From Escherichia coli (GTDB lineage Bacteria > Pseudomonadota > Gammaproteobacteria > Enterobacterales > Enterobacteriaceae), in the NCBI RefSeq assembly GCF_030013595.1, contig NZ_CP122769.1: DNA of 64,000 nucleotides; one strand, written 5' to 3'. Made by a program: the position numbers. Positions within the stretch are counted from its first letter, which is position 1; every line of letters starts with the position of its first letter. Of this stretch, positions 15,001 through 21,000 are shown piece by piece.

Positions 15001-18000
15001 ACAGCCTGGATCAGCGTCTAAATCCCGATCTGGCTCCGCCGGAAATCTCTGAGACCATGCAGGAGTTCAATAATATGTTTGATCGCCTGGAGGGGGCATT
15101 CCGGAAACTGTCAGATTTCTCGTCTGACATCGCGCATGAGCTGCGCACACCAGTCAGTAATCTGATGATGCAGACGCAGTTTGCACTGGCTAAGGAAAGG
15201 GATGTTTCGCATTACCGCGAAATTTTATTCGCTAACCTGGAAGAACTGAAAAGGTTGTCACGAATGACCAGTGACATGCTTTTTCTGGCACGTTCAGAGC
15301 ATGGTCTGCTGCGGCTGGATAAACATGATGTGGATCTGGCAGCCGAACTGAATGAATTACGTGAGTTGTTCGAGCCCCTGGCAGACGAAACAGGAAAGAC
15401 AATCACGGTTGAAGGAGAGGGCGTTGTTGCCGGAGACAGCGATATGCTCCGACGTGCTTTCAGTAACCTGCTTTCCAATGCAATCAAGTATTCTCCCGAT
15501 AACACCTGTACAGCGATACACCTTGAGCGTGACAGTGACTGTGTGAACGTGATGATTACGAATACGATGTCCGGCCAGGTTCCCGCTAATCTGGAACGTT
15601 TGTTTGACCGGTTCTATCGCGCAGACTCATCAAGGTTCTACAACACGGAAGGCGCGGGGCTGGGATTATCAATTACAAGGTCGATCATTCATGCTCACGG
15701 CGGCGAGCTGTCAGCAGAACAGCAGGGGCGTGAAATTGTGTTCAAAGTGCGCCTGTTAATGGATTAATCCCGTTGTTCAGGAGAAACCTGGAAGGTGACA
15801 AAATTGTCATCATTCAGTCACGCGATAAACAGAGGCGGTTTTTTATAATTATTCATAAATCAGGAGCAGCGTGATAACACAATCACCTGGTTCCTGGAGT
15901 GATGATTAACCCGCCCTGAGATCAACTGCTTTCTCTGTTATAAGCCATTGATTGTTTGGGTATGTAAACACCGGAGACCCAACCATGAAAAAGATTCTCG
16001 TATCATTTGTTGCCATTATGGCTGCCGCTTCATCTGCCATGGCTGCAGAGACAATGAACATGCATGACCAGGTAAATAATGCACAGGCACCTGCCCACCA
16101 GATGCAGTCATCTGCTGAAAAAAGTGCAATTCAGGGAGACAGCATGACAATGATGGATATGAGCAGTCACGATCAGGCCGCAATGTCCCATGACATGATG
16201 CAAAACAGCAATTCTGCTGCCCACCAGGACATGGCTGAAATGCATAAAAAAATGATGAAAGCTAAACCCGGAGCTACCAACGAAACAGCAAAGTCATTTT
16301 CTGAAATGAGCGAGCATGAGAAGGCCGCAGCTGTACATGAGAAGGCGAATAATGGTCAGTCTTCCGTTGTTCACCAGCAGCAGGCTGATAAGCATCGCAG
16401 TCAGATCACCCAGAATTAACCCGCAGCTCCACTTGTTAGACCCTCATTTGACGCCGAAGTCACTGGCTTACGCTCCCGTCCGGGAGCGTTTTTTTTCCCA
16501 TATATCAAACTTTAACTCTGAAGAGGTGGAAGTATCTGACCAACACTGTCACGTAACGCCAGATAACTACAAAAACACCTTTTTCCTCCTGTAAATTGCA
16601 GTTCCTGCAAGAACATCAAGGCATAATGTTGGAACAGCGTGTGATACACACTTAGCATCATGTTTTGTATGTGTTTTTTTAAAACTTTACAACTTTAAAG
16701 TCTTTTTCAGGTTAAAGGATACAACTTTAATGTCTCTACACAGGTCCTACCTTTGCTCAAATCAAAATGTTCTGACATACCAAAATGGAGTGTAAAATGA
16801 CTCAAAACCAGGGTTCTGAGCCAGTACCGGCGAGCCGGACAGGGCAGCTCATCAGCGCCCGGGATATGGCCATGCAGAAATTCGAAGAAGGGATGCGGTT
16901 AATCTCGGAAGCGTCGGAACTGTGCGGTCTCTCTCTCTTCACCAGCAGAATTATGCAGCCCAACGCATTTGGTCTTCCGTCGTCACTGGATCGCACCATC
17001 GAGGAGGGGCGTAAGGAAATTGACCGTAAAACGTGGAAAAGGCTCTTTGAAGAAACAGGTATGGACCGGTACTGGAACCATAAGCAAAAAGAAGCCTTTA
17101 ACGAATCCCTTCGTACGGATCCGCCCGTCGCTTCCCTGGAGATTGTTAAGGGAACATTACAGCATGCACTGGCTAACAGACGAGACACCCTTGCAGAAGG
17201 TTTCGTTGATGTTCTCAACAAGCTTGACCGAAGTTTCAAAAGCAATGCCAGGCAATATACAATGCCAAAAAAGCTTGTTCTTCGGGGGATTTTTCCTGGT
17301 GTGAACGTGCTGAGGTACAACGGTTTCTCGCAGGACAATCACTTTTGTTTACGCGACTTTGAGAATATTGTATGCATCTGTTCTGATACTCCAACACCTG
17401 CAACCGGCGGTGGGCTGAGTATGGTCGACAGGCTGACGGCCATGAGAAATACAGAATTCACAGGCGAGGTCAGTGATGAGAATGGCTGGCGGTGTCGCCT
17501 GTTTGAGAATGGAAACGTTCATATTTGCATCGACAGTATCTCGCTTCTGAATGCTCTGAACGATCTTATCAGCATATATTTTGCAAACCAGCTTCCGGCC
17601 GCAGGAAAAAAATGATGATTGAAAATGATAAAGAAAAAAGCCTGAACGATGCTACCCCGCCAGAGGTGCAGAATGACATCCGCAGCGAATCCACTGAAAA
17701 ATCAAAGGAAATGGGTCGTTCAAGGTACTCATCTATCGCGATGATCGATTACTTCAATGCAATCGAACGTCTGTGCAAAGAGAAAGAAATTAACCCGGAA
17801 AATATCGATCTGAGCTTCAAAGTTCACTGGCTCAGAAACGCTGTTGGCGGCTCGTTTGCAAGGTCACAGGAGATGTTCGCGGAGTACCAGAAGTATGTTA
17901 AAGAGGTTCCTGAAGAGGCCCGTTACCTGGATATACCCGATGAGGTAAAGGTTGCACTCGGCGATATTATCTCGTACATCACCTGGCACTACCGTAGAAG

Positions 18001-21000
18001 CTATACCGCAATACAGAATGATAGTGTTAAAAAAGCTGAAGCACGTAGCATGCAGCTGGAGGAGGAGGTAACGCAGCTGTTACAGCGGCTTGAGCAAAGC
18101 GCTACCGATATGGATGAGCTGAAACTTGAGAATCAGGCACTACAGGGTCGATTAGAGATCCGGGACAGTACCGTCAAGGAGTTAGAAACAAGGCTGAATG
18201 TTGCCGAAGCAGAACTCGAAACCTGCCATCACCAGTTAGATAGCACACGGCATGAATTGAGCCTCGCACAGCAGTCAAATGACTCACTCTCCCAGCAACT
18301 GGCTGAACGTAAAACAGAGATCGCTGGTCACCTTGAATATCAAAAAAAGCTGAACGAAGAGATCAACACGCAGCGTTCTGATAACGCCGGTCTTTCCAGA
18401 CAATGCGACCAGTTAAGTCAGACTGTGTCAGATACAAAGGCAGAGAGGGACAGGTTTGAACAGGAATTGATTGCTGCACAGAACCTTTGTACTGAGCTGA
18501 AAAGTGCACTGTCCGGGAAAGAGGGTGACCTGGTGGCGGTGAATGCCGAGCTTACTGAACTCCATAAACTAAACGAGTCGCTGAGCGCCGACCTGAATAA
18601 AGTAACTTTGGTCAGCCAGGGCTATGAAGCGGAAGTGGCTGAACAAAGCAATGAACTCAAAACGCTCCAGGCCAAAGTAATGAAGCTGGAAGCTACCCTG
18701 GAGGCGGAGAAAACAATCTCAGAATCCCTAAAAGGCACCATTGATACATTAACTGGTGCAATGGCAGGGGGAGGTACTGGAAAGTCAAAACAGCCGCGTA
18801 GCAGAAAAACATCATGATAAATGAAGCCAGGTTGATACACTTCTCTGCATCCCCTGGCACATAAGAACTTCTGCGGACATTCAGCCCGTCCGCAGGAGTT
18901 TTCGTCCTTCAGTCAACAAATGCACTACCTTTTTTGAGTCTCCACTTTCCAGAGCAGAAAACACGTTACCGATTCTACCAACAGCTTGTATCTGAGTGAT
19001 AACCCCAGTCTTGTAATCATCTAGGATCCCTGACAGGAAAGCGTTCAGTTTTGTCTGTTCGCTTAGCGAAAGCATGTAGGACATTTTTTCTCCATTTTAA
19101 GCAGGTGTGTCAGTTGAAAGAGGTTTGCGTGATTCTGGAAAATGAGGCAGCACCATAGTTTCAGATGCTGTGGTCGCATCCCAGTGCCACCATCCATAAG
19201 GCCCATATTCACGGTTGTAATAATCTTTTTTGAGTTGCTTTCGGGCCAGATAAGCAGGAGTGGCCATACCAAATACTTCCATCGGGAACGGCTTATCGCT
19301 TTTTGTGTCGAGCAGGTAGAAGTCAGGGAACACCTCACTAATACTCGCATCATAACGCATGGGCTTAACGTACTGCCGGTGCTCTGCATCCAGCTTTTCT
19401 GCAACAACCGCCTCATAGGAGGAGTCCAGAGGTATCCAGTTCTCGCTAACGTGCATCAGCACAATTTGATGAGCTCTTACAGAAGGGCCTCTGCCGGTTA
19501 CCGCAGCTGGTGACGTCAACGCAAAGACAACTATTTTCGCCCCGGATTTCCATGCTGCGTACTCCGATGAAAATCGTTTCTTTACGCTATCCCAATGGAC
19601 TTCTGAATTGAAAAAAATCAGCGGTAGCCCCCCAAAATTCCGCAGGGGTAAAAATTTAAGTGGCTTCTCATGCTTTTCAGCATCGTAGCGAGGTAAAACT
19701 GACAGGAGCATGAGACGTTTATCACTCATCGCCTGTGATGAAAGACGCTGAATTTGCGACTGAGCGACAGGTTGTTTCGGGTCAGGTACACCAATGAATA
19801 AATGGTCACCTATGCAGGCTCTGCCGGTACGAATTTGTTTAGCGGTTTCAAGCAGACGATACCGTACCAGTGAATCGTTACGTTTCCCTGCCATTTTCGG
19901 GTACCAGACATTCAGACCAGACTCTGTCCACAAAAGACTAAGCAAGCCCAGGAGGGTCATTGAGGCCTGACCTCCTTCTGGTCGCTGAACATGGGGCAGG
20001 GGAGGCACTTCTGATTTTTCAGGAGGATCTTTCTCTGTCATACCGATACCGAGCCTTACAGCCATATCACCTTCGGTTGTAATCCGGACCACACCACTCG
20101 CATATCCTTTCAGGCCGGTATGCCGGGCATCAAGGGAGAAGAATACACAGGAAGGATCATGCTCAATGCCCGTGTTAGCGGCTTTGACGAGAATAAAGGC
20201 ATCACCGTTCGGTAAAGCACGAACATAAAGTCGCTTTTCTCCTTTTCCACGACATCCGCAGGTGATGACTGATTTTTGACCTGAGGTGTGGTGTGCCTTT
20301 TTAAGAGCCGACTGCCACCCTTTAGCAAACTCATCCTGCGTTTGAAAGTCAGGTGAATACCTTTTGACGTTTGGATCGTCGTCGTAAGCAATCATCACTG
20401 CGAATTTTTGGCTCATAGTAGTCTCCTAAACAGGAAGTTTAATATCCCAACCAGAGCAACACTTCCTGAGCGTCATACTGTTCCTTTACGCCCATGTCGC
20501 TAAAGAATTCTTCGAAATCTGTTTCGGGAACGCAATGCCTGGACAGTTCTTGTAATGCTCGTTCTTTAGATACCGTCTCACCTTCAGCTGATTCGAAATA
20601 CGTCATGGTTGACCTCTGACATTATTACAACAATCTTAAGCATTTAAATTGATGAAGGAGCTCAGGTCAGCTGACTTCGTCGTAAAACTGCCGCAAGCGC
20701 TGGGAGGCTGCAAATTCAATTCGTGACTTCAGCAGTTTGGCGACGGCCGCAAAGACATCAACGACCACGGAGTTCCCAAACTGTCTGTAAGCCTGTGTAT
20801 TGGACACAGGGATACGGAAAACACTTTCCCCGGGTTTATCGAAGCCCATTAGCCTGCTGCATTCACGTGGCGTTAGCATGCGTGGCCGACGGTCCATGTT
20901 GTATGTGTTATGGAAATCAGTTTCTCCCAGTTCATGAGACCAACCCCGATCAATAAGAATTTCAGATCCGTCTTTCATATAGCGGCTTGAGAGGGTTCTG

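Follow-up and report, generated by a model that had tools for sequence, protein, structure and literature searches.

Among the described plasmid systems closest to the locus treated here are the KfrA proteins (PF11740) of the plasmid incompatibility (Inc) groups IncP-1 (RK2 and R751), IncU and IncC, in which a small N-terminal helical domain is followed by a long coiled coil. Their genes lie in the plasmid backbone with a palindrome upstream of the operon. The kfrA gene is self-repressed, and the KfrA family is tied to stable inheritance. The present locus is a two-gene operon on an mcr-1 plasmid of group IncHI2 from Escherichia coli (contig NZ_CP122769.1), analyzed within a stretch of 64,000 nucleotides (nt) that is referred to below as the window. 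Unless another record is named, coordinates are positions in the window, and both open reading frames (ORFs) of the operon, ORF1 and ORF2, are on the + strand. ORF1 encodes a protein of the DUF4942/YdiA type, and ORF2 encodes a coiled-coil protein that has in common with KfrA the overall architecture, the backbone location and the upstream palindrome.

The second point of reference is the DUF4942 (PF13708) or YdiA family itself. Samuel et al. (2024; PMC11541004) list YdiA/DUF4942, labelled as uncharacterised, with the families whose genes show the strongest enrichment in plasmid leading regions. In their Supplementary Table 1, one DUF4942 family ranks 24 with 2,171 members at a median position of 1 from the origin of transfer (oriT), and a second ranks 76 with 551 members at a median position of 6; both families are found in the T-strand-transcribed orientation. 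A search of the literature found no functional study of DUF4942/PF13708, of either protein of the pair, of ydiA in leading regions, or of IncHI plasmids by transposon-directed insertion-site sequencing (TraDIS), and no publication on the ORF1-ORF2 pair.

What is new about the operon is not its kind but the pairing of a KfrA-like protein that escapes Pfam with a member of an abundant and uncharacterised leading-region family. It has the look of equipment for plasmid housekeeping or establishment, and not of phage defence or addiction. The explanation favoured here, held tentatively and with somewhat less than even confidence, is that the operon belongs to the IncHI backbone and that its two proteins act together on plasmid DNA for the sake of establishment or stable inheritance.

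A coupled and co-inherited gene pair

The first-pass annotation had described a translationally coupled operon of two ORFs spanning 16785-18817, with an ATGA overlap at 17612-17615, and this arrangement is present as claimed. ORF1 occupies 16797-17615 (272 amino acids, aa; no methyltransferase domain) and ORF2 occupies 17612-18817 (401 aa). At the coupling junction (17603-17615, read from the sequence), the TGA of ORF1 (17613-17615) is overlapped by the ATG of ORF2 (17612-17614), and an AGGA at 17603-17606 lies 5 nt to the 5' side of that ATG. The end of the proposed span at 18817 stands, but its beginning has to be moved. Initiation at 16785, which would give a protein of 276 aa, is probably false, as the position of this ATG reads AAG in IncHI1. 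A GGAG Shine-Dalgarno sequence (16787-16790, read from the sequence) is found 6 nt before the ATG at 16797, and IncHI1 keeps an equivalent GGA before its own ORF1 start. The spacing of the GGAG, the RefSeq annotation and the lack of conservation of the upstream ATG together make 16797 the most likely start.

Both ORFs are genuine genes and not chance reading frames. The pair is present in IncHI2, IncHI1A and IncHI1B and in three more lineages (one contig each from Enterobacter, Photorhabdus and a metagenome), with amino-acid identities across the lineages carrying it of 57-69% for ORF1 and 31-45% for ORF2. The ratio of nonsynonymous to synonymous substitution rates (dN/dS) is 0.11-0.23 for both genes where dS is unsaturated, and both are, as judged from sequence comparison, under purifying selection. 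Every ORF2 homologue with a readable context has a DUF4942 gene immediately 5', and in none of the lineages found does an intact ORF2 occur without that gene. In PLSDB the two genes occur near 1:1, with 1,427 records carrying ORF1 at an identity of at least 60% and 1,430 carrying ORF2. The spacing between them is also tightly kept, as the 4-nt overlap recurs in two further loci (L010 and L013) and is replaced by a gap of 2 nt in IncHI1 and of 20 nt in Photorhabdus. Of the two genes ORF2 evolves faster, by a factor of about two, and their identities co-vary across lineages.

Measured against what the first-pass annotation had named as counter-evidence, the picture is divided: the pair is kept together in all IncHI-type lineages found, but ORF1 is from a very common plasmid family that is partner-less on more than 3,500 other plasmids. 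A tblastn search places ORF1 relatives on at least 5,000 PLSDB plasmids, comprising about 1,150 records at an identity of at least 90% (IncHI2), 280 at 60-80% (IncHI1) and more than 3,500 below 60%. The nearest DUF4942 outgroups, at 30-33% identity to ORF1, are on IncHI-like plasmids and are without ORF2, which argues that ORF2 was added, in this lineage only, to an older block in which DUF4942 was already present. One outgroup type adjoins genes for DUF1173, a thermonuclease (SNase) and a phospholipase D (PLD)-like protein, with PsiA a few genes off (locus L028). The more distant relatives that were inspected share 20-27% identity with ORF1 and are single genes without an ORF2 partner.

From this distribution arises a competing explanation, possible although on balance doubtful, in which the two genes are co-transcribed but independent: ORF1 would have the usual YdiA role, for instance in early entry or anti-defence, and ORF2 would be a separate KfrA-like regulator or scaffold. 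The solitary DUF4942 genes, including those of the nearest IncHI-like outgroups, speak for independence, as do the standing of YdiA families as leading-region hallmarks (PMC11541004) and the faster evolution of ORF2. It is harder to reconcile with a stop/start overlap or near-overlap that is kept down to 31% ORF2 identity, with the near 1:1 co-occurrence, and with the failure to find any intact ORF2 that lacks the upstream gene.

A truncated copy of the pair was also met outside IncHI. Locus L004 (NZ_CP072951.1, a MOBF plasmid of K. pneumoniae MGH 39) has at 4129-6096 a DUF4942 gene of the IncHI1B type followed by no more than the first 133 ORF2 codons. The segment is cut by IS26, and the Tn3-family transposase in front of it is the same as in the IncHI1 loci L002 and L003. 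It appears to be a backbone fragment moved by transposable elements.

ORF1 and the DUF4942/YdiA family

The first protein of the pair had been described as having no assignable motif, which proved wrong. Residues 77-265 of ORF1 match Pfam DUF4942 with an E-value of 3.4e-26, covering model positions 2-187 of 190, and the protein matches phrog_38825 with an E-value of 2e-100. In an alignment of 81 sequences, the family-invariant residues W80, D187, H242 and N255 are all kept in ORF1, as are the near-invariant residues R22, D76, P110, T120 and G239. AlphaFold2 (AF2) models ORF1 as a helical protein with a small four-stranded sheet at a predicted local distance difference test score (pLDDT) of 89.5, and structural matches in the AlphaFold Database (AFDB) to stand-alone DUF4942 proteins reach template modelling (TM) scores of 0.6-0.78.

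A phmmer search recovered 583 DUF4942 relatives among 1.84 billion representatives, and these fall into two size classes, a short ORF1-like class of about 260 aa and a long class of about 450-520 aa. About half of ORF1's relatives bear an extra C-terminal N6-adenine methyltransferase domain that has no counterpart in ORF1. Such fusions are annotated as N6-adenine methylase or DNA methyltransferase. Homology to ORF1 extends over its full length and takes up their N-terminal 260 residues, and the C-terminal part is a class I domain dependent on S-adenosylmethionine (SAM) with ExxAGxG and NPPF motifs. ORF1, in contrast, ends where the methylase domain of the fusions would start. A methyltransferase function for ORF1 was considered and rejected, since the protein has no SAM or catalytic motifs, no Rossmann fold in its model and no NCBIfam methylase match. 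Because DUF4942 precedes a minimal catalytic domain that has no recognition domain of its own, a role in substrate or DNA recognition is suggested for it. By this analogy, ORF1 may be a non-catalytic DNA- or substrate-recognition protein.

The stand-alone genes of the YdiA type are the nearest known equivalents of ORF1, being of the same Pfam family and a similar length class (about 260-290 aa) and having the same invariant residues. They differ in setting. YdiA-type genes are typically the first gene beside oriT, whereas ORF1 is distant from the mobilization genes and is coupled to ORF2. In the leading region of pOXA-48, for example, a stand-alone DUF4942 gene sits beside antirestriction and ssb genes, and on an IncK plasmid such a gene directly adjoins the nikA/oriT region.

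ORF2, KfrA and the upstream palindrome

ORF2 has the layout that had been described for it, namely a globular N-terminal domain, a long coiled coil and a basic tail. A variable N-terminal tail (aa 1-37) leads into a conserved helical domain (aa 38-140, 17723-18031), a putative KfrA_N-like helix-turn-helix with the core WLRNAVGGSFARSQEMF, which has 38 invariant columns over 10 sequences. The coiled-coil region (aa 141-385, 18032-18766) is proline-free over about 245 aa, matches only coiled-coil profiles (SMC arms, crescentin rod, FPP) and is variable except for the better-kept segments at aa 221-260 and 361-380. A Gly-rich linker and basic tail with an isoelectric point (pI) of 12 (aa 386-401, 18767-18814) complete the protein. 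In some homologues the second half of the coil is longer by an 11-residue insertion, to which no change in the first half corresponds, and this uncompensated insertion suggests a parallel coil rather than a folded-back arm of the kind found in structural maintenance of chromosomes (SMC) proteins.

The ORF2 family comprises only 9 protein clusters in 5.8 billion sequences and is restricted to IncHI-like plasmids. A search with a profile of the N-terminal domain finds the ORF2 family and its fragments only. Shorter ORF2-like proteins of 169-260 aa were considered as new architectures and rejected, being frameshifted fragments of error-prone metagenome assemblies. The GenBank label 'ATP/GTP-binding protein' for ORF2 is likewise spurious. 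Its probable source is the string AGGGTGKS (aa 385-392, 18764-18787), which fits the PROSITE P-loop pattern; it is located in the disordered tail and is missing in the IncHI1, Photorhabdus and Enterobacter homologues.

The N-terminal core of ORF2 resembles the KfrA_N motif VR..LG.GS. For a closer comparison, KfrA genes from IncP-1, IncU, IncC and other plasmids were collected, and then 120 further PF11740 proteins. In hhalign, ORF2 residues 46-121 align with KfrA_N positions 7-74 over 67 columns, bringing a (V/L)R-x2-(L/V)G-GS-F core into register. The probability is 16.8% with a 7-sequence KfrA profile and 45-62% with a 111-sequence KfrA_N profile (P 8e-5 to 2e-4, score 30.5), with the probability staying below 65% and under the usual confidence level for what is a remote link. 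As controls, 100 column shuffles gave a mean score of 12.0 (standard deviation 2.3, maximum 20) and the reversed alignment gave 14.6. Taken with the long coil, the match above all shuffles is suggestive and speaks for the comparison to KfrA made in the first-pass annotation, and the N-terminal domain of ORF2 is probably a distant relative of KfrA. The two families also differ. The ORF2 family, unlike KfrA, is limited to IncHI-like plasmids and is missed by the Pfam hidden Markov model (HMM), and while kfrA of IncP-1 heads the kfrA-kfrB-kfrC operon, ORF2 is a second gene with a DUF4942 partner and with convergent genes downstream.

A further resemblance to kfrA is the palindrome TAGTAAAG-N-CTTTACTA (TAGTAA-N5-TTACTA), which is found upstream of ORF2-containing operons only. 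Native IncHI2 plasmids of the pEF01 type carry it as the perfect palindrome TAGTAAAG-C-CTTTACTA (full site TAGTAAAGCCTTTACTA), with a second related site, TAGTTAACTCTTTACTA, 260 bp further upstream. The palindrome or close variants lie about 60-110 bp before the operon in native IncHI2, IncHI1A, IncHI1B and Photorhabdus, and a weaker version is present in the Enterobacter lineage. It is absent from 23 other loci, which include about 70 kb of IncHI2 backbone and L027, a partner-less DUF4942 locus on an IncHI-like metagenome contig. Upstream of the L027 gene, at 5755-5795, is another long palindrome (ATATGTCGTATAA...TTATACGACATAT) of different sequence, and for that reason a different regulator is suggested there. 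In the Photorhabdus locus L011 (7055-7165), only 4 bp separate the palindrome from the called start of the DUF4942 gene (301 aa). The called product exceeds its homologues by about 30 aa, and translation probably begins some 90 nt further on. Neither the window nor the native upstream region yielded a convincing sigma-70 promoter when scanned.

In the window itself the palindrome has been displaced. The end of a Tn7-like transposon carrying sil and pco genes occupies 16560-16743, and the junction with the IncHI2 backbone (16743/16744) is 53 bp before the start of ORF1. Insertion-free IncHI2 plasmids such as pEF01, which have no adjacent metal island, share the window sequence only from 16744. 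The transposon is about 32 kb long and contains tnsA/B/C/D, sil and pco, with the tns genes at the end opposite to ORF1. In NZ_CP027411.1 both palindrome sites (11943-11959 and 12205-12221) are just outside the tnsA end; locus L026 is 5747-11959 of that record. Through this insertion 53 bp before the start codon, the operon has been severed from its native control region. PLSDB holds 563 records with the transposon junction (R478 included) and 573 with an uninterrupted junction, and the coding sequences of the operon are identical with and without the insertion. It follows that expression from the native promoter is dispensable or that another promoter substitutes for it. The repeats ACAACTTTAAWGTCT at 16689-16703 and 16721-16735 were considered as operators and discarded, since they are part of the Tn7-like transposon end. 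A third near-copy, ACAACTTTAAAGTCA, at 50825-50839 is inside the MobH relaxase gene and was judged a chance match.

Within the favoured explanation, of two proteins acting together on plasmid DNA, the helix-turn-helix domain of ORF2 would bind DNA, probably at the palindrome, and binding there would make the operon self-repressed by analogy with kfrA. The coil of about 245 residues would allow ORF2 to dimerise or multimerise, and further contacts with DNA, of a non-specific kind, would come from the basic tail. ORF1, made in a fixed ratio with ORF2, would join it in a nucleoprotein complex, and this complex would serve plasmid establishment or stable inheritance.

Several observations weigh against this explanation. 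Pfam, one of the checks proposed in the first-pass annotation, gives the ORF2 protein of the window no match at E<=10, and KfrA_N is not matched at E<=0.1 in any of 10 ORF2 homologues. The AF2 model of the ORF2 N-terminal domain (10 sequences) has a pLDDT of 47 and is unreliable and unusable for a fold search; the KfrA link is consequently drawn from profiles, at the remote level given above. The confident model of ORF1 has no counterpart among solved structures, so that a recognition role for it is argued from domain position in the fusions. No kfrB or kfrC homologues follow ORF2, and most DUF4942 proteins have no ORF2-like partner. The operon does not look like a classical leading-region gene here, as it is about 29 kb from mobI/mobH, toward which it points. 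Lastly, in about half of the IncHI2 records, including R478 and the window, the palindrome is split from the operon. The genes stay intact where this has happened, and autoregulation therefore cannot be essential.

The surrounding block and the role of the operon

Over 16400-19100 the window agrees at 100% identity with both R478 and the IncHI2A plasmid NZ_CP027411.1. Upstream of the operon are the sil and pco genes, ending with the pcoE terminator (16470-16489). On the downstream side a GC-rich hairpin (18871-18895), scored on the - strand and followed on the + strand by GAGTTTTCG, sits between ORF2 and the convergent genes and is likely a bidirectional terminator. The convergent genes (- strand, 18881-22136) are a 67-aa ORF, DUF1173, a 55-aa ORF and a Dcm-type cytosine methylase. 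For DUF1173 a PD-(D/E)XK-like fold that lacks the active-site signature is predicted, together with an N-terminal zinc motif (PMC3045609). The location between a metal-resistance island and a methyltransferase module was thus described correctly, the latter being the dcm gene. DUF1173, Dcm and SNase are kept with the operon wherever enough flank was available, and the series from the 67-aa ORF to the methylase accompanies it in all IncHI lineages. On this conservation, the operon, DUF1173, an orphan-type Dcm and SNase constitute a conserved backbone block and not a variable hotspot.

Immediately after dcm, the window contains at 22225-26644 an IS1 element (insA/insB), blaTEM-1 (23125-23985), mcr-1 (24225-25850) and pap2 (25898-26644), at the place where NZ_CP027411.1 has the SNase gene. 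Further along, at 48830-54066 on the + strand, are the genes for the MobH relaxase (48830-51982, 1,050 aa) and the TraD coupling protein. In NZ_CP027411.1, mobI and the intergenic region that likely holds oriT are just upstream of mobH.

The nearby dcm gene invites the idea that ORF1 supplies target specificity, as a detached subunit, to a methyltransferase whose gene is elsewhere, be it the adjacent Dcm or an enzyme of the host. Many relatives have DUF4942 and a methylase domain in one polypeptide, and dcm is 3 kb away in all IncHI lineages and is also found near a Pseudomonas DUF4942 homologue. Nonetheless, the fused domain is of the N6-adenine type (NPPF) and not C5, and Dcm enzymes have their own recognition domain. 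The Dcm of the window matches the full-length E. coli enzyme (NCBIfam PRK10458) at 846 bits, with 'orphan methyltransferase' as its best PADLOC model, and most stand-alone DUF4942 genes inspected have no neighbouring methylase gene. The idea is therefore regarded as improbable.

Phage defence is the least credible of the functions considered. A Lamassu- or SMC-like system, or another type of two-component defence with a coiled-coil sensor, would find some encouragement in the weak PADLOC matches of ORF2 to LmuB (28 bits) and JetC and in the nuclease-like neighbours DUF1173 and SNase. LmuB, SMC and JetC have a long coiled coil in common with ORF2, which gives rise to weak profile matches, but all of these matches are sub-threshold and confined to the coil. 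The NCBIfam SMC match scores 43.9 bits against a cut-off of 567, and with scores so far under the cut-offs ORF2 was rejected as an SMC, MukB or Rad50 protein. At 401 aa it has no ATPase head, no hinge and no effector partner of the LmuA type, and its sole P-loop-like string is the unconserved one in the tail. ORF1 matched no PADLOC model, so that PADLOC returned nothing above threshold for the pair, and the operon belongs to a vertically inherited backbone and not to a variable defence hotspot. The likeness to SMC and Lamassu proteins and the suggestion of a two-component defence system were accordingly abandoned.

A toxin-antitoxin or addiction pair, or a true partition system, is only marginally more credible and remains very improbable. 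An overlapping two-gene layout on a large, low-copy plasmid and the link of the KfrA family to stable inheritance would suit such a system, and the first-pass annotation had raised both addiction and partition. Profile searches matched neither protein to a toxin or antitoxin family or to the ParA, ParM, TubZ or ParB families, however, and no partition NTPase was seen among the annotated neighbours. Sizes of 272 and 401 aa are atypical of toxin-antitoxin pairs, and neither a toxin nor an antitoxin would be expected to stand alone, as the ORF1 type does on thousands of plasmids.

Anti-restriction or anti-defence is a more serious contender, though still an unlikely one. Here ORF1 would be a catalytically inert relative of the recognition module of an orphan methylase; early after conjugative entry it could shield DNA or sequester a host nuclease, with ORF2 as a DNA-bound scaffold. 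Leading regions, in which DUF4942 is over-represented, are also where genes against host defences gather, and the neighbours include an orphan-type Dcm methylase and, in L028, a nearby PsiA. The operon also points to the mobI-proximal oriT region, which would be the T-strand-transcribed orientation if the relaxase enters last. Against this, the Foldseek comparisons of Samuel et al. showed no anti-restriction or anti-CRISPR likeness for YdiA/DUF4942 (PMC11541004), and the operon is about 29 kb from oriT, behind the type IV secretion system (T4SS) genes. With a neutral pI of 6.9 (the DUF4942 family median is 7.2), ORF1 is not an acidic DNA mimic. A more specific proposal, and slightly less likely again, is that the free-standing DUF4942 protein descends from an orphan adenine methylase, as its recognition module without catalytic activity, and that, with a KfrA-like scaffold, it coats or marks incoming or resident plasmid DNA against host nucleases.

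IncHI2 and IncHI1 plasmids carry mcr-1, extended-spectrum beta-lactamase (ESBL) genes and typhoid multidrug resistance, and their backbones consist largely of hypothetical proteins. Two of these have now been made testable, one as a KfrA-like putative DNA-binding scaffold with a candidate operator and the other as a member of DUF4942/YdiA. If the operon has no role in establishment or stability, this is ordinary backbone annotation; if it does aid either, the operon would be a potential target for limiting the spread of IncHI plasmids. For the wider family, the IncHI pairing offers a handle on DUF4942/YdiA, since biochemical work could start from the partner and from a candidate DNA site. Should the proposal of coating or marking prove true, it would represent an anti-restriction or establishment mechanism that is neither enzymatic nor based on mimicry, and would give a first function to YdiA, the first-entering gene on many IncI, IncK, IncF and IncL/M resistance plasmids.

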